Below, piece after piece: positions 43,674 to 59,569 of a DNA stretch of 64,000 bases. How positions within the stretch are numbered: the first letter of the stretch is position 1; every line of letters begins with the position of its first letter. The notes below the pieces were generated by a model. The model saw only the letters and a program-made list of their open reading frames with translations. It had not been told where the DNA came from and did not search any database. The stretch is from the NCBI GenBank assembly GCA_000993205.1, contig LBVU01000002.1:117079-181078 (forward strand), read 5' to 3'. The stretch is from Candidatus Woesebacteria bacterium GW2011_GWB1_39_10 (GTDB taxonomy: Bacteria; Patescibacteriota; Microgenomatia; UBA8517). Position numbers and translations under genes: made by a program.

Positions 43674-44306
43674 CTAATTCAAAAGGTCAGTAGCAATTAT
43701 ATCAATATCTAAAAGGATTTGCCTTAACAATCTGGTATCGTAATATCTTACATGGACAAGTCCGTACGGCATTTTCCCCACTTTTTCGGTTTTAAAATCT
43801 CTACGTACATATGGCTTAGAAAATTGTTTTTGAGGAATATTCAATTTCTCCGACCAGTATTCAATTAATTTGCCACTATTCTGATTGGAAAAACAGTAAA
43901 TATATACTCTCAATCGCTTTTCATTCACAAAGTAAATTTTTCTAAGCATTCTAGTAAATATTAAGAGCATTTTCTCGTTACTGTTAGCAAAATCGACAGC
44001 CGCTTTGTTTGCTTTTGACCCTTCGGCCCAGTATAGCGACAGCCCACTAATAAATAATTTTTGTAAGTTTATATCTAACTTATCTATTCTCTTAAAAGAC
44101 AGAGGGCTTCTCTCAAATTGAATTTTAATAGTTTCTGACGGTTTTCTTCTTTTGATTTTATTTCGCCTCATAAAACTAATAACTCTCCAAACAGAAATAT
44201 TATATTTCTGGGCAATTTCATTGGCACTCAAGCCGAACTTATTGTAAAGCTTCAATACATCAATCTTGTCAAGCATACCAGATCTATGGTATTCTCCACT
44301 TGCCAT
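43674..44306 (-). CDS. HTH DNA-binding protein, possibly LAGLIDADG-like homing endonuclease
   Basis: N-terminal HTH GLSANEIAQKYNISVWRVISFM; segment LFISGLSLYWAEGSK weakly resembles a LAGLIDADG motif; located between tRNA genes. Confidence 0.4.
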   Translation of the reverse strand: MASGEYHRSGMLDKIDVLKLYNKFGLSANEIAQKYNISVWRVISFMRRNKIKRRKPSETIKIQFERSPLSFKRIDKLDINLQKLFISGLSLYWAEGSKANKAAVDFANSNEKMLLIFTRMLRKIYFVNEKRLRVYIYCFSNQNSGKLIEYWSEKLNIPQKQFSKPYVRRDFKTEKVGKMPYGLVHVRYYDTRLLRQILLDIDIIATDLLN

Positions 44307-45126: not shown

Positions 45127-45312
45127 ATGGCAAAAAAGGGGGCGCGAGAACTTGTGAGCATGATTTGTTCCGTCTGTAAAAATCAAAATTACATTACAAA
45201 CAGGAATAAGGTAAATATGGATGTTAAAGGCAAAGGCAAGCTCCAAATCAAGAAATATTGTAAATTTTGCCGCAAATCTCAACTTCACAAAGAAAGCTCC
45301 AAACTAAAGTAA
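45127..45312 (+). CDS. rpmG: 50S ribosomal protein L33
   Basis: CSVCKNQNY...CKFCRK zinc-ribbon pattern and size typical of L33. Confidence 0.85.
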   Translation: MAKKGARELVSMICSVCKNQNYITNRNKVNMDVKGKGKLQIKKYCKFCRKSQLHKESSKLK

Positions 45313-45963
45313 GATTTTTTCTCCCAACTTCCGAGCCTCATTTTCAAAAAACCTAATCATCTTCTGCCTATCAAGTTTGATTTTCATTCTGGGAAAATCT
45401 TCCAATTCATTCACCTTGAGTAAGTTCTTGACCAACTCAACCTCAGAAATCTTAATATCAAACTTTATTCTGTGAAGATCCAACGCGCGTTTGAGCCTCC
45501 ATTTTTTACGCTTCGCGATTTCATACAAATCAATAAAATCGCGCGCTTTTTTACGAAGTAAAATTGTTTCAACCTTATTTGCATAAATATCTTTTATTGA
45601 ATCTATTTTGACTCCTCTGAAATAACTTGGTTTCCCGAGCTGTGGAAATGAATAATAGACAAAATCGATTATCAGCTCTTCTCCGTTATTCCACTTAAGC
45701 TTAAACCCGTTCACATTAGTTTTTAATCTTTCGATTGTTGTATAACCCAATTCCTTTTTGGAGCTAAAGATGAAGTTTGCAACATCGACAAAGGTGAATT
45801 CTTCCGTGGAAAAAAAATCCAAATCTTCGGAATATCGGTGATTTAAATAATAACCAGCAAGAGCGGTTCCACCGGTTAAATAGAAATTGCTAAATTTTTT
45901 GTTTTGACCAACCAATCCAAGTAGTTGCTTCTGTCTGGTTGTAAACCAGGTTCTTTTTTCCAT
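45304..45963 (-). CDS. AbiEii/AbiGii-family nucleotidyltransferase (type IV toxin-antitoxin / abortive infection toxin-like)
   Basis: FYLTGGTALAGYYLNHRYSEDLDFFS matches the DUF1814/AbiEii G-G...S-E-D-[IL]-D-F signature. Confidence 0.75.
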   Translation of the reverse strand: MEKRTWFTTRQKQLLGLVGQNKKFSNFYLTGGTALAGYYLNHRYSEDLDFFSTEEFTFVDVANFIFSSKKELGYTTIERLKTNVNGFKLKWNNGEELIIDFVYYSFPQLGKPSYFRGVKIDSIKDIYANKVETILLRKKARDFIDLYEIAKRKKWRLKRALDLHRIKFDIKISEVELVKNLLKVNELEDFPRMKIKLDRQKMIRFFENEARKLGEKILL

Positions 45964-46166
45964 TTTCTTCCCCATACCAGGAATTCTATCGCCTTTTTGG
46001 TATCAATATCCAGGTCTTCCGAAATCTTACCCCAATTTTTGATAATCTCTGCCCTTTTTACCCTTTCCCCACCGTAAGTTAAAGCCTGCTTTATCCTCCA
46101 AAGTTTGTATTCTTTAGGATTGTTTTTCCTAAATAATTTTTCGTCCGTGTTCCAATTTACGATCAT
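45876..46166 (-). CDS. hypothetical small protein upstream of and overlapping AbiEii-like gene (possible cognate partner)
   Basis: 97-aa ORF starting at MIVNW after removing the part antisense to tRNA-Trp; overlaps AbiEii ORF by about 88 nt in another frame. Confidence 0.35.
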   Translation of the reverse strand: MIVNWNTDEKLFRKNNPKEYKLWRIKQALTYGGERVKRAEIIKNWGKISEDLDIDTKKAIEFLVWGRKWKKEPGLQPDRSNYLDWLVKTKNLAISI

Positions 46167-46199
46167 ATGCCATGATATAATATCACCTAGAAGATAGAT

Positions 46200-46273
46200 A
46201 GGCTCGTGATGAAATGGTATCATAGCGGTCTCCAAAACCGCTCTTTCAGGTTCGAATCCTGACGGGCCTGCCA
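46200..46273 (+). tRNA. tRNA-Trp (anticodon CCA) with encoded 3' CCA
   Basis: Manual fold: acceptor AGGCTCG/CGGGCCT, D-arm ATGA..TCAT, anticodon stem GCGGT/ACCGC loop CTCCAAA, T-arm TCAGGTTCGAATCCTGA, discriminator G then CCA. Confidence 0.8.
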
Positions 46274-46344
46274 ACAAAGTTCGACTGTGTCCTTCTGAAG
46301 CTTTAGCGGAAGAGGATTCTATCCACCCCTGCAAGATAGCCTGC

Positions 46345-47289
46345 TTACTCTTTAATCCCCAATAACTCATTAACCTGAATATTTACTCCCCGGTGGTCTT
46401 TTATACTTACCCTGTAGCCATATTGAGTTTTGGTTCTCTCGAATAATTCGGGTCGAGTGAGATAAATTGGGACAATCATGTCTTGGATACACATTTTCCC
46501 GTCTCGTTTTTCTGACTCAGGTAAGACTCCGGGCAGATTTCTTCCAACACTGCGGGATATTGCAGAAAGTCTTTGAAGTTGTCTGTTCCGTGTTTCTAGC
46601 CCCTCAGAGACAAACTTGGCAAGTGGGTCAGTCGATTTCTCCAAAACCTGGACCATTTCCCTTGTAACTCCATGCTCCAACACCCCACCCCAATCATAAA
46701 GTAAGGTTTGCCCTGAATCTCGTAGATAATCTAAGGCAGCTCGGTCTTGTTTTGTATTAAAACTCATTCCTTGCCCTTCTACATCCTCCGCCGGAGCGGT
46801 GATTACTATTTCGGATATTTTCTCAGCTAACCCTTTTTCTTTTGCCAACCTGACAACTTCAGCAAAGTCTGTAAAAGCACCCAATCCAACAAGTGTGATT
46901 GGTTCGGGAGAATTAGAAAGCAATTCGACAACTCTCTGTACGGCCTCCAGGTTTGGTTTTCTCGCCTCAACCGCACCTTGAGCTATCGGTGGAATACCCT
47001 CGCCCCAAGCATCCCTTACCCTTGATAGCGAGTTATAACTCGTCCGACCATCCCCGTTATTTGTAAAAATTGACATTATAAATAATGGGTTTAGTTTTTG
47101 GTCTTTCGTGGCTGTTCGGATCATAAACAAGGCTAACCCATCATCTCTTTCCTGCGGAGCTTCTTTAATTCCACCAAAATATGCACCCGAAGTTATATCT
47201 GTGGAGATAATTAACCTTTTTCTTATTTCACGCTTAACTTCCGGGGTAATCTGTGATTCCTCAATCGGAATTTCACCAACCTCACCCAT
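46345..47289 (-). CDS. hypothetical protein (314 aa); weak resemblance to nucleoside hydrolase N-terminal Asp cluster
   Basis: ORF; LIISTDITSG...ERDDGLAL only loosely like DxDxxxDD of IU-nucleoside hydrolases. Confidence 0.45.
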   Translation of the reverse strand: MGEVGEIPIEESQITPEVKREIRKRLIISTDITSGAYFGGIKEAPQERDDGLALFMIRTATKDQKLNPLFIMSIFTNNGDGRTSYNSLSRVRDAWGEGIPPIAQGAVEARKPNLEAVQRVVELLSNSPEPITLVGLGAFTDFAEVVRLAKEKGLAEKISEIVITAPAEDVEGQGMSFNTKQDRAALDYLRDSGQTLLYDWGGVLEHGVTREMVQVLEKSTDPLAKFVSEGLETRNRQLQRLSAISRSVGRNLPGVLPESEKRDGKMCIQDMIVPIYLTRPELFERTKTQYGYRVSIKDHRGVNIQVNELLGIKE

Positions 47290-47416
47290 AACTACATTCT
47301 AACACCAACCCCGGAAATCCAAACTTGAAGAAGTTCCCTACATCGTTCATTAGCCCCTGCATAATAGGTACTGAATAGTACTTGACAAGACCTTTTTTAG
47401 GTACTAATATAGTACC

Positions 47417-47680
47417 ATGTCTAACACACAAGCAACACAGGTTAAGATAACTCTCCCAGACGAATTATATCTGCATCTTAGAAGTAGGGCTGAAAGGTTT
47501 GGTCTAAATTTGGCAGCTTACATTAGGAACCTTATTATTAACGATGTTAAGGGTGTTGATATTCCTGTTTTTAAAATGAGCGAAGAGAGAGAAAAAATAG
47601 CTTTAAAAGCGTTGAAAGATTATAAGAGCGGAAAAACCAAGGTGGTAGACAATCTAGATAACTATCTTGCCAACCTGTAA
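47417..47680 (+). CDS. ribbon-helix-helix (CopG/ParD-like) antitoxin
   Basis: KITLPDELYLHLRSRAERFGLNLAAYIRNLI is an RHH motif; 14-nt overlap with downstream toxin gene. Confidence 0.7.
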   Translation: MSNTQATQVKITLPDELYLHLRSRAERFGLNLAAYIRNLIINDVKGVDIPVFKMSEEREKIALKALKDYKSGKTKVVDNLDNYLANL

Positions 47681-47945
47681 GGAAATGAATATCAGGACTA
47701 CAACCTATTTTGACAAAAATCTCTCAAAGAAAATAAGAAAAAACCCTCAACTTAAAGCAAAAGTTAAAAAACAAATTGAACTATTAAGGGAAAATTTTCG
47801 TCATCCTTCCCTCAGACTTCACAAACTAACCGGAAAAAGAGCGCAGGAATATTCCTTCTGGATAGAAGGAAACTTAAGAATTACTTTTGTGATTATTGGT
47901 AATGCAATTCTGTTTACAGATATTATTACCCACGACGAATATTGA
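47667..47945 (+). CDS. RelE/ParE-family toxin
   Basis: HPSLRLHKLTGKRAQEYSFWIEGNLRITFVIIGNAILFTDIITHDEY matches the RelE/ParE C-terminal pattern. Confidence 0.7.
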   Translation: MPTCKEMNIRTTTYFDKNLSKKIRKNPQLKAKVKKQIELLRENFRHPSLRLHKLTGKRAQEYSFWIEGNLRITFVIIGNAILFTDIITHDEY

Positions 47946-47949
47946 TTTA

Positions 47950-48705
47950 TTAGGCTTTTGTCATCCCCAACTTTTTGGGCCAGGAGTCGCCCTTCGGAGT
48001 AATTACAAACATCATTCTTTTGTCAGTCACGGTACGGGGTTTGGAAGTTCCCCCAACTTTAATCTCGTTTGAATCCCACCAGCGCCTTTGAAAATCCTTG
48101 ATTCTAAATCTTCTATCCACCCCTGCGAACTTATGGAACGGGTCTGCAATCCGAATATAGCCCCGTTCTTTATCTACCCGAGTAATAACGCCGTAATGCC
48201 CATCGTCTTCGTCGGCGTCTTCATAAAATACCCCTTGCCACTCCACACCCACAGGAAACCTGTATTTATTTACAATTGCGTCCAAATCGCTGATTTTAGA
48301 ATTTGCCTTTTTCCAGAAAGAAAAACCCCCTTTGCCGGCTATTTTGGCGCCGCGCGCCAAATCTTTTATGCTCATTCCCCATTTCCTGATTTTCTTCTGC
48401 GCGCGGAGTGAGACTACAATCCTCTTCTGAAAAGTTTTAACACCCAAGAAAGAAAACAACATAGTGATCACCGCCGGCCCACAGCTATAAATATCAACCT
48501 GACGTAATCTTGACATGCCGGGAAACGCAACCCCGCGGATTCTGTCTTCTAAGGCTAAAAGACGTCTAATGACCTCCCGAATTGTCTTATTTGTATTGAT
48601 TTCCATTTGGCCCAATTGTACGGCCATTAAACAAATTTGTCTACTGAAGATTCTTGGCGTATTTGGAAAGAAGACTCCCCAAAGTTTCCGAAAATTCCAC
48701 GCCAT
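47950..48705 (-). CDS. papain-like cysteine peptidase/acyltransferase, peptidase C39-like fold
   Basis: RQVDIYSCGPAVITML (Q...CGxA) plus downstream DDGHYGVITRVD (His) resemble the C39 / BtrH-like catalytic arrangement. Confidence 0.55.
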   Translation of the reverse strand: MAWNFRKLWGVFFPNTPRIFSRQICLMAVQLGQMEINTNKTIREVIRRLLALEDRIRGVAFPGMSRLRQVDIYSCGPAVITMLFSFLGVKTFQKRIVVSLRAQKKIRKWGMSIKDLARGAKIAGKGGFSFWKKANSKISDLDAIVNKYRFPVGVEWQGVFYEDADEDDGHYGVITRVDKERGYIRIADPFHKFAGVDRRFRIKDFQRRWWDSNEIKVGGTSKPRTVTDKRMMFVITPKGDSWPKKLGMTKA

Positions 48706-49717
48706 TCATAGCCATTACTTCCGTCATTGGAAGACCCATATCTGGTCCGAATGCTGTATTGGGGTTACTATCAGTAAAATATGGAATGTGAGTGTTCTCG
48801 TCTACTCTAATATCAAACTTTGCATAATCTTTGTGTTGAAGACCTCCAAAGGCCCGTACAGCAAGTTTTTTAATTTCATACTTAAGACTTTCTTCTACAG
48901 GAACGTATTTATACGCTCTGGCATCTGAATACGATTCAAAACTTGTAAAAAAATGTTTGCCGTCAGGTCTTTTCCTGAATATTTTTTGCGCCATATAAAC
49001 GTGACGTTTGATATTGTCTTCAAAAACCACCACTGTTATTTCCGGACCGTCAATAAACTTTTCTACAATGACAGGAACTTTATATAGTGTAATCATGTTG
49101 TTAACCCTGAGTTTGGCGGCTCTGTCTGTTTCCTTTACTGCCGTGTCATTTATACCAACACTGCCACCACCCTCGTTCAATTTAACTATCAGAGGCAAAC
49201 CCAAATCTTCATCTATGTTTGTTCCGACACGCCTTATAAATTGAAACGGAGGTGTTGGAACATCGTAGGCCATGAGAAGTCTTTTTGTTAGATTGCGGTT
49301 GTTGCCAATAATAAGGCCTTCCATTCCCGCCCCGGTATATGGAATATTGGCAAGCTCAAGAGCCGCTGGGACCGACGGCTGAAGCTGATCCCGACCTTTT
49401 AAGGTGTCAACAAGATTAATGACCAAGTCCGGTCTATCTACCAACAAATTCGTATAAAAATATTGATCTCCGGGAAGGGTGCGTGTGGGAATTCCAAGCT
49501 TACGTACCTCCTCCGATACCTCTATCGCCCTCGCCTCCACTTCAATTTCCGCTTCGTAAGCGTCTTTTGTGGCAAAATTTTCCCGTTCAACAGAAGAATA
49601 TGCAACCACAACCAGCCGAAATTTTTTGAGAGCTTCTTTGTCTATAGACAAACGGATATTTTCCCTGGACGGAGATTTTTTTATTTCAACTTCTTCCTCA
49701 ACTTTGGCAGTGGGCAT
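48641..49717 (-). CDS. ATP-grasp enzyme of the D-alanine--D-alanine ligase family with atypical N-terminal region (start taken near MPTAKVEE)
   Basis: LIVKLNEGGGSVGI, IDGPEITVVVFED and C-terminal KFDIRVDENTHIPYFTDSNPNTAFGPDMGLPM parallel Ddl motifs. Confidence 0.7.
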   Translation of the reverse strand: MPTAKVEEEVEIKKSPSRENIRLSIDKEALKKFRLVVVAYSSVERENFATKDAYEAEIEVEARAIEVSEEVRKLGIPTRTLPGDQYFYTNLLVDRPDLVINLVDTLKGRDQLQPSVPAALELANIPYTGAGMEGLIIGNNRNLTKRLLMAYDVPTPPFQFIRRVGTNIDEDLGLPLIVKLNEGGGSVGINDTAVKETDRAAKLRVNNMITLYKVPVIVEKFIDGPEITVVVFEDNIKRHVYMAQKIFRKRPDGKHFFTSFESYSDARAYKYVPVEESLKYEIKKLAVRAFGGLQHKDYAKFDIRVDENTHIPYFTDSNPNTAFGPDMGLPMTEVMAMNGVEFSETLGSLLSKYAKNLQ

Positions 49718-49753
49718 ATACATATAGTAAAAGGTAAAAAGTAAAAGGTAAAG

Positions 49754-50194
49754 ATGTATAATTTTAGTATGAAGAAAAAGGTCTTGGTCGGCGGGTGTTT
49801 TGATATCCTCCACTATGGACATATTCATTTCCTTAAAAACGCCAGGGCGCTTGGCGATTACCTGGTAATTGCGCTGGAATCAGATAAAAATATAAAAAGG
49901 ATAAAGGGATCTTTCCGCCCTATTCATGATCAGGATAAAAGGCGCGAAATTCTTGAATCTTTAAATTTTGTAGATGAAGTAATAATTTTAAAAGACGAAA
50001 TGCAGGATAGCGACTATTTTGAGTTGGTTGACAGGGTGCGACCCTGTACAATCGCCGTAACTTCGGGAGATTCCATGATTGAAAAGAAAAAAGCTCATGC
50101 GGCAAAGGTCGGGGCCAAAGTCATTGAAATCCCCAAAATTGAGTCTGCCTCAACTTCCAAGATTACCAAACTGCTGGAACTGGAAACGTCATAG
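49754..50194 (+). CDS. cytidylyltransferase-like (HIGH-motif nucleotidyltransferase) small protein
   Basis: VLVGGCFDILHYGHIHFLKNA is the (H/T)xGH nucleotidyltransferase signature. Confidence 0.75.
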   Translation: MYNFSMKKKVLVGGCFDILHYGHIHFLKNARALGDYLVIALESDKNIKRIKGSFRPIHDQDKRREILESLNFVDEVIILKDEMQDSDYFELVDRVRPCTIAVTSGDSMIEKKKAHAAKVGAKVIEIPKIESASTSKITKLLELETS

Positions 50195-50249
50195 GGGAAA
50201 AGACTAATTGAAAAACTAATAGTCTTTTCCCCTTTTTGTCACAAACCCA

Positions 50250-50741
50250 CTATTGAGACGCAGAAATTGTTACTTTCGAAGATTTTTCCTGGCTCGAAAT
50301 CTGTTTTTTCATATACTGTGCGCCCGTCAGGGTCCATTTTCCCGATTGGAAAATGTATGTATTGCCTTTTTGGTCGTAGCAAAAGTCTCCCACTTTATGC
50401 AGGGGAACACTGTTTGCAAATATTGTAGGCAAAACATATACCCCTGGCGTGCTCTCAACAAGAATCTTTATGCCGAGAGATGCAAACCCAAACTCCAATA
50501 CTTCAACCTCATCTTCCTCCCAAAAAAATCTGTCGCTGTATGGGCTATTTCCGCCGGACATTTCGGCCCACCCTTTAGACGAGCGTACGTAATAATTTCC
50601 ATCCTTGTCGATAACTGTATCAGAATCAACTCCCGTTACCTCCAAAATTCTTCCATCATGAAAAATTTGTTTTCTTGTTGGTTTTGAAAAAAATGGAGTG
50701 CCCGGAACCCATCTTTCTCTCTTTTTTCTTTTTCTGCCCAT
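50250..50741 (-). CDS. hypothetical protein with basic N-terminus (163 aa)
   Basis: ORF only. Confidence 0.4.
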   Translation of the reverse strand: MGRKRKKRERWVPGTPFFSKPTRKQIFHDGRILEVTGVDSDTVIDKDGNYYVRSSKGWAEMSGGNSPYSDRFFWEEDEVEVLEFGFASLGIKILVESTPGVYVLPTIFANSVPLHKVGDFCYDQKGNTYIFQSGKWTLTGAQYMKKQISSQEKSSKVTISASQ

Positions 50742-50807
50742 TTGGGCTCCTTTCTGGTAATGTACGATTTGTGACTTGGGTATTTTAGCACAAAATACCT
50801 CCAGCTA

Positions 50808-50835
50808 TTGACAAAATTCCTGTTGACCCTATAAT
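50808..50835 (+). promoter_or_regulatory. Sigma70-like promoter TTGACA-N16-TATAAT upstream of the 50891 ORF
   Basis: ttgacaaaattcctgttgaccctataat read directly. Confidence 0.5.
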
Positions 50836-50890
50836 AAAGCCGAATACACACGAATGTTGTGTAAATCTTGTACATTAATTAAGGAGTAAC

Positions 50891-51124
50891 ATGGGTGAAT
50901 CCACTCAAACAGCACCAACGACAGTGACTGTAAAAGGCTCAAAAAAGTCCAGGCAAAGGCCATTGTTGACCCCGGATGAATTGGAAGCAATCAGGCTGAA
51001 CGACATCGAATGTAACAGTCGTCGAAAAGGCCATGCCGGGAAAACATGCCCAAATTGCGAAGCATTCAATTTGGCTGACCAGTATAAATGTCATACCTGT
51101 GGCTATGTTTTCGCCTGCCAGTGA
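50891..51124 (+). CDS. small zinc-ribbon protein (77 aa)
   Basis: CPNCEAFNLADQYKCHTCGY CxxC...CxxC pattern. Confidence 0.5.
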   Translation: MGESTQTAPTTVTVKGSKKSRQRPLLTPDELEAIRLNDIECNSRRKGHAGKTCPNCEAFNLADQYKCHTCGYVFACQ

Positions 51125-51258
51125 ATAAGTTCTTTTTTAAAGGAGAGCAGAAAACAACCAAATCACAAAAATTTGATTGCATACTCTACTCTCCGCACCA
51201 CCCCTATCCCCAATTTTTGGAAATAAACAGACAAAATAGTCCTCTTTTATGCAAAATT

Positions 51259-51286
51259 TTGAAAATTGGAATTTTGTGTATATAAT
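51259..51286 (+). promoter_or_regulatory. Sigma70-like promoter TTGAAA-N16-TATAAT upstream of the 51340 ORF
   Basis: ttgaaaattggaattttgtgtatataat read directly. Confidence 0.45.
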
Positions 51287-51339
51287 AATGGCCTGTATCT
51301 GGCACGTTCGAAAATAAAAAAATTTTTCGGAGGTTCACC

Positions 51340-51597
51340 TTGAAAGAGATTAAATGCATCTGCAAACCGGAAGGCTCGGGATTAAACAAGAAATGCAAAC
51401 ACTGCCATCCAACGAGCAGATTACTCGCCAAACGTGAAGAGAAATGGTCCGCCAGAAAAGCCGGACATGACAAACATCGGTTGGCCGAAGATGTGCGGCG
51501 CGCAGCCAAAGGATATAAATTGGGAGAAATTCTCGCTGGTCACGGACCTGTCCAAGTCCCAGATCAAGAGGAAGAGGATTATGTCCCCCTCGCGTAA
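51340..51597 (+). CDS. small Cys/His-rich hypothetical protein (85 aa); an overlapping alternative-frame ORF at 51434-51712 makes the frame uncertain
   Basis: ORFs in track; CICKPEGSGLNKKCKHCH motif. Confidence 0.35.
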   Translation: MKEIKCICKPEGSGLNKKCKHCHPTSRLLAKREEKWSARKAGHDKHRLAEDVRRAAKGYKLGEILAGHGPVQVPDQEEEDYVPLA

Positions 51598-51729
51598 TAT
51601 GTACAAGCAAGCCAAACCAATCTACCCAAAAGGTCCTTCTAAACCCAAAAAGTCGGCCAATAAACATAAAAGCCAAGGGGCAAGAAAGATCACAAGGGAC
51701 GGGAAAAAGTAGTTTTAGTTGAACAAAAA

Positions 51730-51780
51730 TACCGAAAGGTGGAATGAAAATTTTTCAGCCCACCTTTCGGTACGTCTTTT
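51730..51780. terminator. Bidirectional terminator hairpin, 13-bp perfect stem TACCGAAAGGTGG / CCACCTTTCGGTA with T-runs on both sides
   Basis: Read directly between convergent genes (51597/51712 plus strand and gmd minus strand). Confidence 0.6.
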
Positions 51781-51803
51781 AAGTTCTTCTTATTCGCTAT
51801 TCG

Positions 51804-52811
51804 CTATTTTAGCCTAGCTATATGCGCATCAACCATCATTCGCACTAATTCTTTAAAAGTTGTCGTCGGCGTCCAACCTAAAATCTTCTTGGCCTTTGCC
51901 GGGTTGGCCACCAAAGGACCTGTCTCGGTCGGGCGTACAAACCGCTTGTCAATCTCAACATATTCTTCCCAATTCAACCCAACGTACTCAAATGCCACTT
52001 CGCATAGCTCCCGAATCGAATGAGTTTCCCCCGTCCCGATTACAAAATCGTCCGGCGTAGATTGTTGCATAATCAACCACATTGCTTCAACAAAATCCCC
52101 TGTAAAACCCCAATCCCGTTTTGCTTCCAAATTCCCCAAGGCAACTTTTCCGTCTTTGACGATCGACTCCCCTTCTTCGTTCAAGTGGTCCGAGTTTTTG
52201 ATTCCCAGCTTCGCCGCTGCGGCTGCGTAAGTTACTTTTTGTGTCACAAAATTCAAGTGCCTCCTGGGAGATTCATGATTAAATAGTATTCCACAGGTGG
52301 CAAACATGTCGTAACTTTTCCTGTAAATTTTAGTCATCGCATGGGCATAGAGTTTGGCCGCTGCATAGGGGTTTGCGGGATTAAAGGGAGTTTCTTCGCT
52401 TTGGGGGATTTCCTTTACCCAACCATACATTTCGGAAGAGCTTGCTTGGTAAAACTTGGCTTTGGGAACCACGTCCCAGACTGCGTCAAGCACTCTGTGA
52501 GCCCCAATTGCCGTAATTTCAGCAGTGTGTATTGGTTGTTTAAAACTTTCGGCAGGATGGCTTTGGGCCGCTAAATTATAGACTTCATCCGGCTGGACCT
52601 TTTGTATAGCTTCACGGAGTGATACCGGGTCAAGTAAATCTGCCTGAATCAGGCGTAATTGGTCCTGAATATGGCCGATATTGTCATAAGCCATATTGCT
52701 GGTCTTCCTTACGATTCCTGCAACTTCGTACCCCTTGCCAAGAAGAAGTTCAGCTAAATATGAACCATCCTGACCGGTAATTCCTGTGATGAATGCTTTC
52801 TTCTTTGCCAT
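51804..52811 (-). CDS. gmd: GDP-mannose 4,6-dehydratase
   Basis: FITGITGQDGSYLAELLLGKGYEV Rossmann N-terminus and ILFNHESPRR motif. Confidence 0.88.
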   Translation of the reverse strand: MAKKKAFITGITGQDGSYLAELLLGKGYEVAGIVRKTSNMAYDNIGHIQDQLRLIQADLLDPVSLREAIQKVQPDEVYNLAAQSHPAESFKQPIHTAEITAIGAHRVLDAVWDVVPKAKFYQASSSEMYGWVKEIPQSEETPFNPANPYAAAKLYAHAMTKIYRKSYDMFATCGILFNHESPRRHLNFVTQKVTYAAAAAKLGIKNSDHLNEEGESIVKDGKVALGNLEAKRDWGFTGDFVEAMWLIMQQSTPDDFVIGTGETHSIRELCEVAFEYVGLNWEEYVEIDKRFVRPTETGPLVANPAKAKKILGWTPTTTFKELVRMMVDAHIARLK

Positions 52812-52814
52812 TCT

Positions 52815-53846
52815 TCATATATTAATGATAATTATCAATAAAATCCAGTGGACAATACTCAAAGGTTGAAACATTGAGTAGATTAGAAAAGACAAAAACG
52901 CGATTTTCTTGTTTATCTCAAGCCTAATGAACGCCTGATATAAAAATCCCAAAAATAAAATGAGACCAAGAATCCCCGTCCACATGGCAACATCCAAAAA
53001 TAAATTATGAGCGCGATCGACCGTTAAATCCGATAAAGGAAAGCCACTCTTAATAAAGGCATTGTCAAAAACAACTTCTCCACTCTCTGCCCCATAACCC
53101 AAAAGTGGCCTTTGTAATATTTGGCCAATTCCAAGTTTCCAAATAATCTGTCTGTTCTCAAAAGGAGAAATTCCTTTTCCTACTGTAAAAATATACAAAG
53201 ACAAAACCGCAACCGGAATTAAAATTATCAAGAAAGATTTTTTGATTCTCGCTAAAAGTGGAACTACCGCGAGAATTCCCGATCTTGATTGAGCGAAAAA
53301 AATCGCAAGAACGGGGATCAACAATAATAATTTGGGAAAGGACTCAAAGACAAAATATGAACCAATTGCTAAATATCCCGCCACTGCATTTGCCTCACCA
53401 ATTGTTCCCAGAGGATGACCCAGATATAATTTATTTCCCAAAAACTGAAAGAGTACAATCGCGCTTTCGATTAGAATTACCGCACTAACACTTTTGACCA
53501 AAAGTTTTTTGCGGTTACTACCCAAGATTCCAACAGTTTTACCGATAAGCCAAAGGGCAAGAAAAAAAATTACCCCTTGGTGTCTGTAACTTCCTCCCAA
53601 AAACGATTCCGCCGGATGGGCCCCGAAAAAACTGGAAATCGCTAAAATCAAAAGCCACACAAGAAAAAGGTAATCGGTTCTGGAAAAAACAAAATATTTT
53701 TTGTATCTCAATGCGCGCAATACCCAAAAAAGAATGAGCGGTATGCTTCCTATTAAAAAGTAGAAAATTTTAGGACCTTCGTATCCGCCTTTCCAAACGA
53801 CCAGAGGGAGAAGTGATACCCACAAAACAAAGAGGTATAAAATCAT
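52815..53846 (-). CDS. O-antigen ligase/polymerase (Wzy_C-like) membrane protein
   Basis: RQIIWKLGIGQILQRPLLGYGAESG and AHNLFLDVAMWTGILG motifs; multiple TM helices. Confidence 0.65.
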   Translation of the reverse strand: MILYLFVLWVSLLPLVVWKGGYEGPKIFYFLIGSIPLILFWVLRALRYKKYFVFSRTDYLFLVWLLILAISSFFGAHPAESFLGGSYRHQGVIFFLALWLIGKTVGILGSNRKKLLVKSVSAVILIESAIVLFQFLGNKLYLGHPLGTIGEANAVAGYLAIGSYFVFESFPKLLLLIPVLAIFFAQSRSGILAVVPLLARIKKSFLIILIPVAVLSLYIFTVGKGISPFENRQIIWKLGIGQILQRPLLGYGAESGEVVFDNAFIKSGFPLSDLTVDRAHNLFLDVAMWTGILGLILFLGFLYQAFIRLEINKKIAFLSFLIYSMFQPLSIVHWILLIIIINI

Positions 53847-53905
53847 TAAATTTAATTATACCCAAAATAGCTATTGATATTAAATAATTACATGACTAAT
53901 ATTAA

Positions 53906-55726
53906 TTGATGGATTTTAAAACCAGATTTGATTCTCTGCCGGTACCCACCAAAAGGCTCCTTGGAATAGGTGTTGTTTTGGCCCTCGCAGTTGCTCTTCC
54001 CCTTTTTGTTTGGTCCATTATTACTCAAAGATTTCTAATCAATAAACGCGCCGCGTCCGGAGAGCCGGGTGTTTGTATCGCGCAAAATAAAATCATTATA
54101 GTTACCCCATCCTCAAACTCCAACGGAACCTGTCATGATATCCAAATGGCGATTAATGCGGTAACGGGAGAAGGATACACTGTTCAAATTGAGCCGGGAA
54201 TTTATAACATTGCTTCTACTATTAATGTAAGTGGAAAAACAACTATAAACATCACGGGTAATCCGCAGGCAGGTTCCGGCGCAACCGTCATAAACTCAAC
54301 TCCGGGTGGCGGTTGGGGTATTTTAGTAGAAAACTCGTCGGGAACGATTCAGTACCTGACAATGCAAGGAGGAAGTTCAAACGGAATGCTGAGTATTAAA
54401 AATAGCAACAATTTTTCGGTGGGATATGCAAACCTTAATTCTCAGACCTCTCATACCATGGACATTCAGGGTTCAAACACAATTAGTGTTTTTAATACAG
54501 AAATAACAAGCTCGGCCGGCGCGCTCGAAATCGGTGGATCAGCAAATATAAATATTTCGAATAATAAAATTCACAATTCCAATAATGCCATTGCAATCAA
54601 CAATTCATCCGGTGTTAGACTACTCGGTAATCTTATATACGGGAATCGTGAATCAGGCCTTGTTATTAACACCTATACGAATAATGTTAGGGATTTTAAG
54701 GCCATGCATAATACTTTCGTAAACAACGCTTTGGGCGGCAACACTATTCCAACCATATCTTTATTGGGAACATCCGGCCGCAATCTTGAATTCAGCAATA
54801 ATATAGTTTTGGGAGGCTTGGGGGCAGGGATTGGCTCCAAAAATCGTTTGCTTTTTAACACTTTTACTCTCAACGATATTTTTGGAAATACTCCAAATTA
54901 CGAGAGATATCCAAATCAAACCGGCAGGAGCGGGAACATTTCAAAAGACCCGCTTTTGAATAGCAACAACTTTATTTACTGCCCCTCACCCGCATCTCCC
55001 GTAGTTTATGGAAATATCGCAAACGGCAAATACATGGGCTATATCGGGCCCTGCGGAACATCAACCCCGCCACCGACTCCGACTCCATCTCCTACCCCAA
55101 CCGGATATCCGAGTCCGACACCGACTACGACGCCGACTGCTGTGCCGTCAGGAACGCCGGGAACAACTCCTCCCCCAACCGTAAGGCCTTTTCAAATTCT
55201 ATTTAAGTTTGATGGTGTAACAGACGGCTCGGCGGCAACCTCGGGTGCCACCGTCCGGTTTAGAGGAGGTCCAAATGGTTCCATTGACTTGATAACACCC
55301 ACAATTCCAACGACTTATATTGGCAGCGGAATCTATCAACTATATTTTGCAACGAATTTGCCTGACGATACCAACTACTCGGTTTCATTAAAAGGAGAAA
55401 AACACCTTGCAATTAGATTTTGCTACCCAAGCGAACAAACTACTTATTGTTCAGATAGTCAAGGACACATTGGTGTTTACAACGCTTCCGGTCCTGAGAA
55501 TTTGGACTTTACAGGAATTCCTCTTCCTGCAGGCGACACATACCCGCAAGACGGAGTTGTCAATTCTACCGACTACGACAGAGTAAGAAGTTTATTTAGC
55601 AAACCGGATTCCGAATTAACAACTACTGACAAACTTGTAGGCGATCTTAATTACGATGGGTTCATCGATATCCGAGACTCATTCCTGATTAGGAAAACAT
55701 TAGGAACCAGATACGATGAAAGCTAA
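53906..55726 (+). CDS. secreted right-handed parallel beta-helix protein with Pro/Thr linker and C-terminal dockerin-like module
   Basis: N-terminal signal/TM; repeated N-x-G/I-x-N beta-helix rungs; PPPTPTPSPTPTGYPSPTPTTTPT linker; two Ca-binding-loop-like repeats DGVVNSTDYDRVRSLF and DLNYDGFIDIRDSFLIRKTLG. Confidence 0.65.
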   Translation: MMDFKTRFDSLPVPTKRLLGIGVVLALAVALPLFVWSIITQRFLINKRAASGEPGVCIAQNKIIIVTPSSNSNGTCHDIQMAINAVTGEGYTVQIEPGIYNIASTINVSGKTTINITGNPQAGSGATVINSTPGGGWGILVENSSGTIQYLTMQGGSSNGMLSIKNSNNFSVGYANLNSQTSHTMDIQGSNTISVFNTEITSSAGALEIGGSANINISNNKIHNSNNAIAINNSSGVRLLGNLIYGNRESGLVINTYTNNVRDFKAMHNTFVNNALGGNTIPTISLLGTSGRNLEFSNNIVLGGLGAGIGSKNRLLFNTFTLNDIFGNTPNYERYPNQTGRSGNISKDPLLNSNNFIYCPSPASPVVYGNIANGKYMGYIGPCGTSTPPPTPTPSPTPTGYPSPTPTTTPTAVPSGTPGTTPPPTVRPFQILFKFDGVTDGSAATSGATVRFRGGPNGSIDLITPTIPTTYIGSGIYQLYFATNLPDDTNYSVSLKGEKHLAIRFCYPSEQTTYCSDSQGHIGVYNASGPENLDFTGIPLPAGDTYPQDGVVNSTDYDRVRSLFSKPDSELTTTDKLVGDLNYDGFIDIRDSFLIRKTLGTRYDES

Positions 55727-56732
55727 ATTTTTTCTAAAGACTTTATTTGCTACCTGCCTTTTTTTTGTGGTAAGCGGATTTATGGGATCTGTGTCAGCAG
55801 CCCCCAGAATCTATTTCGAACCAGCCACTTACACCTCCTCTAAAAATACTGACTTCCAAATAAATTTAAAAATTGATGTCGAAAGTAAATCTACAACCGG
55901 CGCAAAAGTCACTCTTAATTTTCCATCCGATATCATAACTCTTAAGGATCCTGTCAGCGGAGGATATTTTAGCGATTTTTTGTTTTCACGAAGTGAGGGA
56001 AAAATTGTTATCAACGCTCAACCGGCTTTGGGCGACAGCAAAACTGGAAGTGGAATCTTAGCGGTTTTGACTTTGAGCTCCAACAAGGACACAGGAACCG
56101 GCGCAGTTATCATGGCTTGTTCGGGTAACGGAAATGATAGCTTTATACTTGACGCAACTGGCGCAAACATTTTGGACTGCGGGTCTATTAATCAATTAAA
56201 TCTTACGTACTCTTCAAGTGGCTCAAACGAGGGATCTGGCCCAACGAACGCGTGCGGAGGAACTTGTGGTAGTGTCTATAATTGCAACTCGGGACTATTC
56301 TGTTATCAAGGTTATTGTAGAAATCCGGACTGTAAAACCGATCTTACTTGTGGTTGTAAGGCCAGTCCGACACCGTCACCTACTGCGAAACCCAAAACTC
56401 CTGCCCCCACATTAAAGGCTTCGTCTACTCCCACTGTCGTCACATTGACAGAGTTTACTCCACTGCCCTCATCATCCGCTTCTGCTATACCGGCTTCGGT
56501 AAACTCAAAGCCCGGAGTCAATTTACAAAGCCTGGCGCTTTGGGCCGGGTTGGGAATTTTGGGGTTTGCTGTAATGTTTGCTGTAATCGGAATGATCAAA
56601 AGCAGAAACAAACCGCCAAAAATCACCCCTCCAACAGGATCAACAACTGAATCGCCTGTCCCTTCGGCGTATAATGTTCCGTCCGAGCCACCGCCCACAC
56701 CTCCGGTTGAGTCTCCTCCCGCCACTTTCTAA
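55716..56732 (+). CDS. membrane-anchored cohesin-like protein (signal peptide, cohesin-like beta domain, Cys-rich module, PT linker, TM anchor, Pro-rich cytoplasmic tail)
   Basis: Signal peptide FFVVSGFMGSVSA; domain PRIYFEPATY...FQINLKIDVES...KVTLNFPSD...GKIVINAQ...GILAVLTL resembles cohesin; TM WAGLGILGFAVMFAVIGMI. Confidence 0.5.
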   Translation: MKAKFFLKTLFATCLFFVVSGFMGSVSAAPRIYFEPATYTSSKNTDFQINLKIDVESKSTTGAKVTLNFPSDIITLKDPVSGGYFSDFLFSRSEGKIVINAQPALGDSKTGSGILAVLTLSSNKDTGTGAVIMACSGNGNDSFILDATGANILDCGSINQLNLTYSSSGSNEGSGPTNACGGTCGSVYNCNSGLFCYQGYCRNPDCKTDLTCGCKASPTPSPTAKPKTPAPTLKASSTPTVVTLTEFTPLPSSSASAIPASVNSKPGVNLQSLALWAGLGILGFAVMFAVIGMIKSRNKPPKITPPTGSTTESPVPSAYNVPSEPPPTPPVESPPATF

Positions 56733-56795
56733 AATTTCGGTTTTTGTGTTAAAATGGTAACTTAGAAAGATAGGTGATTTTATCAGACTATAAAA

Positions 56796-56990
56796 ATGTT
56801 CATACTAAAAAAGAATAAAGGCGAAAGCGACGACAAATTAATTGCCCGCTTTCGCAAAAAAACTATTGTAGAAGGTGTAATGCAGGAATATCGCGATCGC
56901 GAACACTATAAAAAACCTTCTGAAAAAAGAAAAGAGGCCAAATACAGAATTGCCCACTCTATTGAACTGGAAAAGAAACGCCACTTCTAA
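56796..56990 (+). CDS. rpsU: 30S ribosomal protein S21
   Basis: EGVMQEYRDREHYKKPSEKRKEAKYRIAHS matches S21 core. Confidence 0.75.
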   Translation: MFILKKNKGESDDKLIARFRKKTIVEGVMQEYRDREHYKKPSEKRKEAKYRIAHSIELEKKRHF

Positions 56991-57021
56991 AATAACTAAG
57001 AGCTAAAAAGTAAGAACTAAT

Positions 57022-57051
57022 AGCTTTTCACTTTTCGCTCTTCACTTTTAG
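57022..57051. repeat. AAAGTGAAAAG-family repeat (reverse complement) encoding the C-terminal KLKVKSEK of RNase HII and forming an imperfect hairpin with 57000-57021
   Basis: agcttttcacttttcgctcttcacttttag opposite agctaaaaagtaagaac. Confidence 0.65.
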
Positions 57052-57720
57052 TTTGTTGAGCCAAGTGGCGACGAAGGCTTTCCTGTGCAATTTAGTCGCT
57101 CCATATTTTTTGATGGCATTTTGGTGTTCTTTTGTCCCATACCCTTTGTTTTTACCCCATTTGTAAACTCTAAATTTTGGATTTTTGGAGATTTTTACCA
57201 TTAGTTTATCCCGATAGACTTTGGCGACAATTGAGGCTGCTGCGATTGAAATCGATTTCGTATCCCCTTTAATAATGGCCTTTTGGTTTTTTCTTCTTAG
57301 ACTCCTTACGTAAGGTATGAAGAAGGCGTCAATGAGTAGATACTCGATACTGGATACTTTGATACTCACACTTTTGATCGCTTTACGGAAAGCTATTTCT
57401 GAGGCTTTTTTTATCCCAAACCGATTTATTTGTGCCACACTTGCCTGTCCGATTCCAATCGCAAGTGCATTTTGCCGTATCCATTTATCTGCAACTTTCC
57501 TCTGTCTTGGAGTAAGTTGTTTTGAGTCGTTGATAATTATTTTGCGATTACCTTTCAAGACCGTGTCTTTAAAGGTGGTTATAGTATTTCTGTCAAAGAC
57601 AACACATCCTGCCACAATTGCGCCGGCAAAACAGCCTCTACCTACCTCATCCATACCGGCAACAACCTTAAAACCTTTATTCCACAGCTTCTTTTCAAAG
57701 GAGAAATCCGGAAGTGTCAT
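57028..57720 (-). CDS. rnhB: ribonuclease HII
   Basis: VAGMDEVGRGCFAGAIVAGCVVF catalytic N-terminus; contains in-frame SSIEYLLID insertion and KVKSEK tail. Confidence 0.88.
   Translation of the reverse strand: MTLPDFSFEKKLWNKGFKVVAGMDEVGRGCFAGAIVAGCVVFDRNTITTFKDTVLKGNRKIIINDSKQLTPRQRKVADKWIRQNALAIGIGQASVAQINRFGIKKASEIAFRKAIKSVSIKVSSIEYLLIDAFFIPYVRSLRRKNQKAIIKGDTKSISIAAASIVAKVYRDKLMVKISKNPKFRVYKWGKNKGYGTKEHQNAIKKYGATKLHRKAFVATWLNKLKVKSEK
57339..57367. repeat. GATACT(C/G/T) heptamer tandem x4 in frame inside rnhB
   Basis: gatactcgatactggatactttgatactc. Confidence 0.75.
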
Positions 57721-58103
57721 TTATTTATCTTTTGCTTATATTTTTCGGGGTATGCGTCAAAAAGCCTATCGGACAAGACGCCAATCATTCTATTCTTCTC
57801 TACGGGAAGAATGGTTCCTAAAGCAACAGCCGTCCTCACATTAGGAAAACTATTCACAATCATAGTTGCCAAGGTTTTATGTCCTCGACCTGCAAGATAA
57901 TACTGAAAAACTGAATCCTTCAAACTCATTGTTTGTTTTTCCTCTATTGGCTGCCAAAAATCACCATCGGCCACACCAAAAACATCTTCGGGAAGAAATT
58001 CTTTTATCCCAACCAAAACAGATTCCCATGACCCCTCTTTAGGCCGATAGCCCTTTGCCTTCTCTCTTTGGAATCTTGTATTCCTTGTCCTTTCTTTGTC
58101 CAT
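57717..58103 (-). CDS. hypothetical protein (128 aa)
   Basis: ORF overlapping rnhB start by 4 nt. Confidence 0.45.
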   Translation of the reverse strand: MDKERTRNTRFQREKAKGYRPKEGSWESVLVGIKEFLPEDVFGVADGDFWQPIEEKQTMSLKDSVFQYYLAGRGHKTLATMIVNSFPNVRTAVALGTILPVEKNRMIGVLSDRLFDAYPEKYKQKINK

Positions 58104-58146
58104 CGCCTTGATTATACCACCTGTAATCTGCTACAATTTAGCTTCG

Positions 58147-58332
58147 ATGAAACAAATTTTCAGCTTCTTTTCTGAGGTCAAAATCGAGCTTTCCAAGGTA
58201 ACCTGGCCCAGACGCGACGAGGTTATAAAGCTCACCTTGATAGTATTCGCCGTCTCGGCTATAATTGGAGCCTACGTCGGAGGTTTAGACTATTTGTTCA
58301 CAAAACTTCTAGCGTTAATTGTCACAAAATAA
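58147..58332 (+). CDS. secE: preprotein translocase subunit SecE (start taken at MKQIF)
   Basis: ELSKVTWPRRDEV motif then single TM helix; secE-nusG-rplK context. Confidence 0.85.
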   Translation: MKQIFSFFSEVKIELSKVTWPRRDEVIKLTLIVFAVSAIIGAYVGGLDYLFTKLLALIVTK

Positions 58333-58335
58333 TAT

Positions 58336-58962
58336 ATGCCTAACGATCAAAAGCCAGAGGATATAACTCAGATTGCCGAACGTGGAACCGGAAAAAAGAA
58401 AATTCCGGGACATATGATTATTGCGGTAACTGAAGATCCCAAGGCCAAATGGTATGTGGTTCACACGTCCTCGGGACATGAGGTACGCGTTATGGAAACC
58501 TTGCGCCAAAGGGTTGAGACTATGAATTTGGTGGGTAGAATCTTTGAAATGCTTGTCCCCACCCAAGACAGAGTCATCATTCGCGGAGGTAAAAAGGCCA
58601 CCATAAAGGAAAAGATTTTCCCGGGATACCTTCTGGTTAAGATGATTTTGGACGACCCAACTTGGTTAGCCGTTCGCACTACAGCAGGAATCACGGGATT
58701 TGTGGGCGCAGGCAATAATCCCACACCTCTATCAGAAATCGAAGTTGCCAACATTCAAAAGTTCGTAAGCTCCCCAGCCCCCAGATTCAAAACAAAGTTT
58801 ACAGTTGGAGAGGCAGTTAAAATTACCGACGGGCCTTTCAGCGACTTTCTTGGGACAATTCACGAAATGGATGACGAAAAAGGAAAAGTTAAAGTATTGG
58901 TAAGCATTTTCGGACGAGAAACCCCGGTTGAGCTGGACTTTCTACAGATCCAGAAGGTATAA
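58336..58962 (+). CDS. nusG: transcription termination/antitermination factor NusG
   Basis: KWYVVHTSSGHEVRV NGN domain and C-terminal KOW (GEAVKITDGPFSDFLGTI). Confidence 0.92.
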   Translation: MPNDQKPEDITQIAERGTGKKKIPGHMIIAVTEDPKAKWYVVHTSSGHEVRVMETLRQRVETMNLVGRIFEMLVPTQDRVIIRGGKKATIKEKIFPGYLLVKMILDDPTWLAVRTTAGITGFVGAGNNPTPLSEIEVANIQKFVSSPAPRFKTKFTVGEAVKITDGPFSDFLGTIHEMDDEKGKVKVLVSIFGRETPVELDFLQIQKV

Positions 58963-59071
58963 TATAAATACCACGGTTTTTCTGTGGGAGACGTAGGTCG
59001 AAACTTCTTTATAGTTTCTTCCTTGCGTTTAGAACAAAACTTGTGGTGAGCGAGTTTTACGAGTCGAATCC

Positions 59072-59500
59072 ATGGCCAGAAAAGTAAAAACAATCGTTAA
59101 GATCAATTTAAAGGCGGCTGAGGCAACCCCAGCCCCTCCTGTGGGAACAGCGTTGGGACAACACGGCGTTGCCATTATGGAGTTTGTTAAACAGTATAAT
59201 GATAAGACTAAAGATCTTAAAGGTCAGGTTGCTCCGGCTGTAATCACGATCTACGACGACAGAAGCTTCACTTTTACTATCAAAAGAGCACCTGTTGCCG
59301 ATATGATCAAAAAAACCTTGGGTATAGAAAAAGGTTCCGGTAAAACCCCAAGGGAAACCGCAGGAACTCTAACCCGCGAAATGGTCAAAAAGATTGCCGA
59401 GGAAAAGTTGGAAGACTTAAATACTAAAGATGTAGAAGCTGCAATGAAAATCGTAGAAGGAACAGCAAGAAGTATGGGAGTGACGGTAGCGTCATCCTGA
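59072..59500 (+). CDS. rplK: 50S ribosomal protein L11
   Basis: PAPPVGTALGQHGVAIMEFVKQYN conserved L11 N-terminal domain. Confidence 0.93.
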   Translation: MARKVKTIVKINLKAAEATPAPPVGTALGQHGVAIMEFVKQYNDKTKDLKGQVAPAVITIYDDRSFTFTIKRAPVADMIKKTLGIEKGSGKTPRETAGTLTREMVKKIAEEKLEDLNTKDVEAAMKIVEGTARSMGVTVASS

Positions 59501-59563: not shown

Positions 59564-59569
59564 AAAAAA

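Follow-up and report, generated by a model that had tools for sequence, protein, structure and literature searches.

The segment of 12.8 kb that lies between rpmG/tRNA-Trp and secE in Candidatus Woesebacteria bacterium GW2011_GWB1_39_10 (candidate phyla radiation (CPR), Microgenomates) was analysed within a window of 64,000 nucleotides taken from this metagenome-assembled genome of the Rifle aquifer. Our analysis indicates, with a probability of about 0.85, that the gap of about 12 kb between rpmG/tRNA-Trp and secE reflects a gene order specific to the Woesebacteria lineage and inherited vertically, which is layered and contains small slots of gene turnover. About 8.1 of the 12.8 kb (c. 63%), collinear in the nearest species and with a core found class-wide, appears to be vertically inherited backbone. 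The variable part, where exchange is concentrated next to the tRNA gene, amounts to about 3.7 kb and is spread over four small slots, holding an AbiEii gene and a small open reading frame (ORF), a hydrolase gene and a ribbon-helix-helix (RHH)/RelE gene pair, hyp163 together with a Zn-ribbon gene and hyp85, and hyp128, respectively.

The original prediction, derived from the sequence alone, had taken the 12.8 kb for accessory-like acquired cargo. For most of the segment this was contradicted by relatives showing the same gene order, the very finding that it had itself named as speaking against it, and its remark that the segment is not a simple single island proved correct. The landmarks rpmG, tRNA-Trp, and secE, split by about 12 kb, were confirmed with all coordinates, as were nearly all of the gene identities listed. 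Our gene map adds an IU-nucleoside-hydrolase-like gene, an ORF of 96 aa, hyp163, hyp85, hyp128, and an interruption between rplA and rplJ.

Conserved gene order upstream of secE

The gene map was based on ORF listing, tRNA scanning (ARAGORN), and searches against Rfam, Pfam, NCBIfam, PHROGs, and PADLOC. For the synteny analysis, a set of 80 species-level genomes with NusG identities of 58–98% was compiled, 10 kb were fetched per side of the NusG anchor, and every window protein and all tRNAs were mapped onto the resulting 80 loci, with orthologues called by tblastn (E<=1e-5, >=40% coverage). Counts given for 52 genomes refer to the loci with at least 9 kb of sequence upstream of secE, and a second scan anchored on the gene for GDP-mannose 4,6-dehydratase (GMD) added locus L099. 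For the two nearest species, L168 (CP066686, a closed chromosome) and L169, the left side was fetched as well; the window genome, L168, and L169 share 97% NusG identity. A literature search revealed no earlier account of Woesebacteria synteny at the rpmG/tRNA-Trp/secE locus.

The classical block is anchored on the left by rpmG (L33; 45127–45312, +; Pfam Ribosomal_L33, E=2.9e-14), a gene that precedes tRNA-Trp in 24 Woesebacteria loci. In the window, tRNA-Trp (CCA) is found at 46200–46273 (+), detected by ARAGORN and with 58 bits by Rfam. On the right side, Pfam identified secE in an ORF at 58096–58332 (+) with a likely ATG at 58147. From the C39 peptidase gene to nusG, both L168 and L169 were collinear with the window, with C39, ATP-grasp, and cytidylyltransferase genes followed after an interval by GMD, Wzy, beta-helix/dockerin, cohesin, rpsU, rnhB, and secE.

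Closest to secE, rpsU (56796–56990, +; Pfam) was found upstream of it in 50 of the 52 genomes, and rnhB (57028–57720, −; Pfam) between rpsU and secE in 39 of them, each in constant orientation. The backbone gene GMD (51804–52811, −; Pfam E=7.8e-116) lay on the minus strand upstream of rpsU in 26 of the 28 species with a NusG identity of at least 82% and preceded rpsU in all 43 loci holding both genes. The orientation of the backbone genes was invariant, save for GMD in 2 of 43 loci. Further upstream, a trio spanning 47950–50194 consisted of genes for a Peptidase_C39 (47950–48705, −), a Ddl-like ATP-grasp protein (48641–49723/49828, −), and a cytidylyltransferase (CTPtr; 49754–50194, +), all assigned by Pfam. 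L168/L169 share the arrangement of this trio, strands included, with identities of 82/59%, 91/92%, and 77/78%, respectively, and CTPtr, ATP-grasp, and C39 occurred in 17/52, 16/52, and 11/52 genomes, throughout in the order and orientation of the window.

A second trio (52815–56732) was collinear in a smaller clade including the nearest species (L008/L168, L009/L169, L013, and L016). It starts with a gene for a Wzy_C membrane protein (52815–53846, −; Pfam), followed by one for a beta-helix protein with a marginal C-terminal dockerin (53906–55726, +; Dockerin_1 with 22.3 bits vs. a cut-off of 22.9), in which two DxNxDGxID-like loops (DGVVNSTDYD and DLNYDGFIDIRD) are visible, and ends with a gene for a membrane-anchored, cohesin-like protein of 338 aa (55716–56732, +). 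The latter revealed no direct match in Pfam and none in sequence or profile searches against the PDB. After alignment of the N-terminal domains of the window copy and six orthologues, five of the seven matched Pfam Cohesin (best E=1.7e-10), the window copy not being among them, so that its label as a putative cohesin is supported indirectly, through its orthologues.

Regarding the textbook arrangement, in none of the 80 species-level genomes was tRNA-Trp adjacent to secE. The gap could be measured in 30 cases, with lengths between 1443 and 9391 bp. Another 22 Woesebacteria genomes lacked a tRNA-Trp in the sequence available ahead of secE (9–10 kb). L077, in which tRNA-Trp is located downstream of nusG, and L086, which is unassigned, likewise lacked an upstream tRNA-Trp and were set aside. 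The minimal form of the locus, represented by L044 and L099, consisted of tRNA-Trp, GMD (−), rpsU, and secE.

Since the source is a metagenome-assembled genome, an assembly chimera joining unrelated contigs was also considered. Nothing specific points to it, and the identical gene order was recovered for this population by independent assemblies (L001–L005) of different samples with different assemblers, with the same backbone in the closed chromosome CP066686, so that its probability is practically negligible.

The Beckwithbacteria outgroup L087 (2107–9811) was also found to be split, with 7.6 kb between tRNA-Trp and secE occupied by housekeeping genes, namely rpoD, typA/bipA, and genes for a hydrolase, an AP (apurinic/apyrimidinic) endonuclease, a phosphomannomutase (PMM), and an NTP-transferase. 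Sugar-nucleotide genes are therefore located just upstream of secE in this outgroup as well, as GMD is in Woesebacteria.

Search for signatures of an integrated island

A second explanation would be that the segment is made up of one or more integrative genomic islands inserted at tRNA-Trp. In its favour, toxin-antitoxin genes flank the tRNA gene, a relic of 20 nt from the 3' end of another tRNA-Trp is located 41 nt downstream of it, and species with as much as 97% NusG identity still have different slots on either side of the tRNA. Island signatures were, however, lacking. Searches of the ORFs between 45304 and 58146 against Pfam, PHROGs, NCBIfam, and PADLOC resulted in no match to an integrase, transposase, or recombinase. 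A second copy of the extant tRNA-Trp 3' end (25 nt and 17 nt), which the original prediction had proposed as an attachment (att) site to look for, was not present in the 64 kb, even with up to three mismatches allowed.

Composition, for which the earlier reading had suggested a comparison with the flanks as a check, gave no signal either. The GC content was 0.420 inside and 0.407 outside the segment (p=0.24), the codon-usage distance did not differ between inside and outside (p=0.53), and the tetranucleotide distance remained within 2 standard deviations, except over Pro/Thr-rich linkers. Horizontal transfer of the whole segment was rejected on the basis of its composition.

Moreover, about 8.1 of the 12.8 kb are collinear in the nearest species with a class-wide core, and relatives carried, in unchanged order, the backbone that an empty site should lack, only about 3.7 kb being species-specific or patchy. 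Being immediately adjacent to the tRNA gene, the relic brackets nothing, and the sole second copy of its 16-nt core (48111–48126) is the coding motif FAGVDRR of C39. Altogether, we regard entry of an island at tRNA-Trp as very improbable.

The same 16-nt exact direct repeat (46317–46332/48111–48126) was also considered as an att pair around the hydrolase gene and the RHH/RelE pair. This candidate was rejected: every C39 orthologue retains FAGVDRR, the codons at 48111–48126 varying synonymously, and recombination between the two copies would truncate C39.

Positions with conserved flanks and differing contents, as expected for slots between operons, were found at rpmG|tRNA-Trp, tRNA-Trp|C39, CTPtr|GMD, rnhB|secE, nusG|rplK, and rplA|rplJ. 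The first four of these, which lie within the segment, differed even among the window genome, L168, and L169. The view that a tRNA gene next to toxin-antitoxin genes marks an integration hotspot was borne out as far as the variability of both tRNA flanks is concerned, but an integrase and a repeat of the extant 3' end, which would go with integration, are missing.

The tRNA-Trp gene and its flanking slots

The tRNA-Trp gene has its own extended −10 element (TGATATAAT, 46173–46181), as read from the sequence. Its allele is of the type found in L015, L108, and L048 and differs from that of the nearest species. Generally, the tRNA-Trp allele types were patchy relative to NusG similarity, the allele of L169 being identical to that of L020. 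The sequence at 46315–46334 (+), 41 nt downstream of the tRNA gene, is of the same type as the 3' end (T-arm and acceptor) of another Woesebacteria tRNA-Trp allele (GATTCTATCCACCCCTGCAA, compared with GATTCTATCCACCCTTGC in L035 and GATTCTCTCCACCCCTGC in L028), and we interpret these 20 nt as the 3'-end relic of an earlier tRNA copy. The unit of tRNA-Trp, a 40-nt spacer, and relic recurs with 91% identity in the distant species L108 (reverse-complemented coordinates 5147–5290). A corresponding 5' relic of a displaced tRNA-Trp was looked for upstream and not found, and folding of the tRNA trailer indicated no structure (z=−0.01).

The slot between rpmG and tRNA-Trp contains a gene for a predicted AbiEii-family nucleotidyltransferase toxin (45304–45975, −), which matched Pfam PF08843 AbiEii (E=4.3e-16; 60 bits vs. 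a cut-off of 22.5) as well as the AbiEii model of PADLOC (E=1.1e-13). Upstream of it lies the 96-aa ORF (45876–46166, −), which has no family match and is possibly the antitoxin partner. The two overlap by about 100 nt (45876–45975) in different frames, and tblastn alignment suggests that both overlapping frames are conserved in L169, too. In that species, the slot holds an AbiEii gene (47% identical), an orthologue of the 96-aa ORF at the same position (78%), and a LAGLIDADG-like gene, though the genes around its AbiEii are 92–98% identical to those of the window. In CP066686 (L168), the slot is empty (56 bp) and the AbiEii pair is missing. Compared with AbiE (AbiEi/AbiEii) type IV toxin-antitoxin/abortive infection systems, the 223-aa protein of the window fits the AbiEii models and has a small gene on the same strand immediately upstream; this ORF differs, however, from AbiEi in comprising just 96 aa, in lacking a match to the AbiEi (winged helix-turn-helix) model, and in its frame overlap with AbiEii of about 100 nt.

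On the other side, the slot between tRNA-Trp and C39 harbours an IU-nucleoside-hydrolase-like gene (46345–47289, −), which just reached the cut-off of Pfam IU_nuc_hydro (34.3 vs. 34.2 bits) and was not found in any of the 80 related loci. Its product matched 8 protein clusters among 5.8 billion, and its homologues (56–62% identity) are located in unrelated contexts. It is followed by a pair encoding a predicted RHH antitoxin (47417–47680, +; Pfam NikA-like RHH) and a predicted YafQ/RelE-like toxin of 92 aa (47667–47945, +; Pfam YafQ_toxin, E=2e-5), which overlap by 14 nt and are preceded by a promoter match at 47382–47410. As in RelE/YafQ-RHH type II toxin-antitoxin modules, the small RHH gene overlaps the toxin start, a consensus promoter is present, the distribution is patchy, and site and orientation differ elsewhere; gene sizes, 14-nt overlap, and promoter fit this family, but both Pfam matches remained under their gathering scores (19.2 vs. 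27 and 25.2 vs. 30 bits, respectively).

The cassette of hydrolase and RHH/RelE genes was unique to the window genome, and both near relatives hold other genes in this slot, namely four in CP066686 and an Exo_endo_phos gene in L169. Among the 80 species, RHH/RelE recurred only in L021 (81/74% identity), where it lies inverted between rpmG and tRNA-Trp. Since this one recurrence is in a different slot and orientation, the RHH/RelE pair bears apparent signs of movement, as does the hydrolase gene, since its clusters are few and its homologues are scattered over unrelated contexts. In other species, the tRNA-flanking slots held orphans or ordinary genes, such as those for guanylate kinase, NUDIX proteins, major facilitator superfamily (MFS) transporters, uracil-DNA glycosylase (UDG), and phosphoribosyltransferases (PRTases), with no integrase among the families listed.

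In CP066686, the tRNA-Trp|C39 slot contains two single-gene cassettes with direct repeats of 37 nt (5761–5797/6470–6506) and 70 nt (7123–7192/8182–8251) at their flanks, the latter being a copy of the last c. 23 codons of C39; the cassette proteins had no family match. Repeat-flanked segments of 0.4–2.5 kb were also observed in L048, L065, L067, and L073, and no flanking repeats were found around the cassettes of the window itself.

A further gene associated with tRNAs is hyp210, encoding 210 aa (43674–44306, −) between tRNA-Tyr and tRNA-Thr. Its N-terminal helix-turn-helix (HTH) region matches PHROG families of HNH/homing endonucleases, and a LAGLIDADG-like motif 'LYWAEGSK' is present. Paralogues or fragments adjoin tRNA genes in L015, L039, L060, L092/L098, and L169, the last of which has three copies or fragments.

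These observations bear on the idea that active insertion is confined to the small slots on both sides of tRNA-Trp, with cassettes and even the tRNA allele being exchanged by recombination, possibly stimulated by the LAGLIDADG-like family. This would agree with alleles that do not follow NusG relatedness (L169 as L020, the window type as L015 and L108), with the tRNA/spacer/relic unit shared with L108, with the repeats around the CP066686 cassettes and their counterparts in the four other species, and with the position of hyp210 paralogues next to tRNAs in the window and elsewhere. However, the window cassettes have no such repeats, hyp210 showed no significant match to a nuclease domain, its similarity to PHROGs being restricted to the N-terminal HTH region, no cassette carries a recognisable recombinase, and differential loss could also give a patchy distribution. 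We hold this idea tentatively, at clearly less than even odds; it complements the explanation by inherited gene order with turnover slots rather than replacing it.

The slots CTPtr|GMD and rnhB|secE

The slot between CTPtr and GMD (50250–51772) comprises hyp163, a Zn-ribbon gene, hyp85, a short ORF (sORF), and a terminator. For hyp163 (50250–50741, −), neither a family match nor a homologue in relatives was found, so that only the window has this gene. The Zn-ribbon gene (50891–51124, +; 77 aa) is preceded by a promoter TTGACA-16-TATAAT at 50808–50835, and the 85-aa Zn-knuckle gene hyp85 (51340–51597, +) by TTGAAA-16-TATAAT at 51259–51286. These two near-perfect consensus promoters confirmed the canonical promoters that had been predicted for the small zinc-ribbon genes. 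Both genes are just 36–51% identical in the nearest species, where an MFS transporter gene shares the slot.

One nucleotide after the stop codon of hyp85, an unannotated sORF (51599–51712, +) encodes a very basic peptide of 37 aa (MYKQAKPIYPKGPSKPKKSANKHKSQGARKITRDGKK). Across the three nearest species, the final 17 codons are retained and differ mostly at third positions (AGG to CGC being among the changes), for which reason the sORF is probably a real gene. It was found in these three species only and has no Pfam family. On its 3' side follows a conserved hairpin terminator (51730–51772).

In the slot between rnhB and secE, hyp128 (57717–58103, −) has no family match. Orthologues with 36–62% identity occupy the same position in seven more distant species, and it is missing from the two nearest ones. 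Neither hyp141, hyp163, hyp85, hyp128, hyp276, hyp65, hyp74, nor the 96-aa ORF had a match in NCBIfam, PHROGs, or PADLOC.

The region from secE to rplL

Downstream of the segment, secE-nusG and rplK-rplA (58096–60406, +) as well as rplJ-rplL (61891–62847, +), all identified by Pfam, form tight units. The median spacers across species were 29 bp for secE-nusG, 27.5 bp for rplK-rplA, and 35 bp for rplJ-rplL, the last never exceeding 249 bp; within units, medians were thus close to 30 bp, and no more than one locus exceeded 300 bp. In contrast, the slots between units (rpmG|tRNA-Trp, rpsU|secE, nusG|rplK, and rplA|rplJ were measured) had medians of 570–1095 bp and were expanded in most species, up to 6–9 kb. 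With such tight spacers within and expanded spacers between units, the order of the cluster was therefore kept and opened at every boundary of a transcription unit. The nusG|rplK junction was expanded in most Woesebacteria, up to 8.2 kb, and that between rplA and rplJ exceeded 300 bp in 51 of 63 species with a maximum of 6.1 kb, with contents differing in both cases.

In the window, a second interruption of about 1.5 kb lies between rplA and rplJ (60399–61759) and contains the orphan genes hyp65 (−), hyp276 (−), and hyp74 (+). The rplA gene (59570–60406) encodes an L1 protein of 278 aa, of which Pfam aligned residues 158–271 only (profile positions 73–198), the N-terminal c. 155 residues being divergent and including a Lys/Glu-rich extension. 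An Rfam scan of 42–64 kb detected just four tRNAs and a Trp_leader-like match, with no L10 or L1 leader. This match (62891–62963, +) was sub-threshold (27 bits vs. a gathering score of 41, E=0.098) and sits between rplL and a divergent TrpR/YerC-like gene (63036–63536); it is probably the rplL terminator. Outside the segment, we also observed a perfect 66-nt tandem duplication at 12371–12502 and a 31-nt direct repeat (93% identity; 39798–39828/40813–40843) around c. 1 kb.

Proposed history of the locus

Based on the distribution of the genes, we suggest that the gene order arose in layers. The oldest layer, closest to secE, would be the class-wide rpsU (+) and rnhB (−), followed by GMD (−), which is common to the large subclade with at least 82% NusG identity. 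In narrower clades, the C39/ATP-grasp/cytidylyltransferase trio and then the Wzy/beta-helix-dockerin/cohesin trio would have been added. The junctions rpmG|tRNA-Trp, tRNA-Trp|C39, CTPtr|GMD, and rnhB|secE would act as turnover slots, with gain, loss, or replacement of one to four genes between species, and nusG|rplK and rplA|rplJ seem to behave likewise. The replaced genes would mostly be orphans, toxin-antitoxin pairs, and genes of nucleotide metabolism, and may have come by recombination from the CPR gene pool. Each conserved unit probably has its own promoter, the classical cluster then consisting of separate transcription units. Such independent transcription is suggested by the extended −10 element of tRNA-Trp and by sequences matching the promoter consensus in front of the RHH and Zn-ribbon genes, hyp85, rpsU, and secE.

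Several points weigh against this history. The GC content at third codon positions (GC3) was slightly higher inside the segment (0.40 vs. 0.37, p=0.008), an excess that stems from the backbone genes C39, GMD, and CTPtr rather than the cassettes. Recombination has also taken place at the tRNA gene in the past, as shown by the relic of another tRNA-Trp allele. Very divergent copies could have escaped the thresholds used for calling orthologues, and with sequence readable only 10 kb either side of the anchor, the left end with tRNA-Trp was unseen for 22 Woesebacteria species. Relatedness was ranked by NusG identity and not by a phylogenetic tree, and the outgroups were thin, with one Beckwithbacteria (L087), one unassigned (L086), and one rearranged Woesebacteria genome (L077).

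As an extension, Woesebacteria could exchange cassettes without an integrase where conserved transcription units adjoin. Single genes would be inserted, flanked by duplications of 30–130 nt of the end of the neighbouring gene, and whole tRNA-Trp alleles replaced with 3' relics left behind, for which LAGLIDADG-like genes beside tRNAs might be the driving force. The repeat-flanked cassettes in relatives and the patchy tRNA alleles hint at this, with little direct support from the window, and we consider it unlikely. If true, the window would be one snapshot of a mode of genome plasticity specific for CPR.

For annotation of CPR genomes, a break in the textbook ribosomal cluster should not be taken for a sign of recent acquisition, and the 'normal' order must be taken from the lineage itself. 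The layered backbone and fixed positions of the slots provide a reference map for Woesebacteria, which is usable for checking assemblies and helps to find the few strain-specific genes in genomes of about 1 Mb, such as toxin-antitoxin pairs, the rare nucleoside hydrolase, and small Zn-ribbon proteins.

Comparison with known systems

Integrative islands that target tRNA genes carry an integrase and duplicate the 3' end of the tRNA as att sites. Here, a tRNA gene also borders variable genes, including toxin-antitoxin genes, and a fragment of a tRNA-Trp 3' end is close by. In contrast to such islands, no integrase was found, the extant end is unrepeated, the fragment 41 nt away originates from another allele, and the 'cargo' is mostly backbone.

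Hotspots of horizontal gene transfer, as described by Oliveira et al. 2017 (PMC5635113), are short intervals between core genes with varied accessory genes and rapid turnover, many of them without recognisable genes of mobile elements. The Woesebacteria slots are similar in having conserved flanks and differing contents. They differ from these hotspots in their size of 0.2–4 kb with one to four genes in genomes of about 1 Mb, and in that species of a class were compared, not a pangenome within one species.

For Gammaproteobacteria, Brandis et al. (PMC6735719) described multigene insertions between the operons of this supercluster, treated the tRNA gene as an ancestral part of the secE operon, and proposed that terminator-promoter overlap holds operons together in Enterobacteriaceae. 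In both cases, the order of an ancient cluster for translation and transcription is kept, unrelated gene blocks appear only at operon junctions, and genes within an operon stay linked. In contrast to the gammaproteobacterial cluster, the lineage here is a CPR class in which nearly all junctions (rpmG|tRNA, tRNA|secE, nusG|rplK, and rplA|rplJ) are opened in most species, and tuf is not located between the tRNA-Thr genes and rpmG. The observation that the cluster is opened only at operon junctions is hereby extended to a CPR class, and the locus is a new example of an already known genome organisation, not a newly acquired island.

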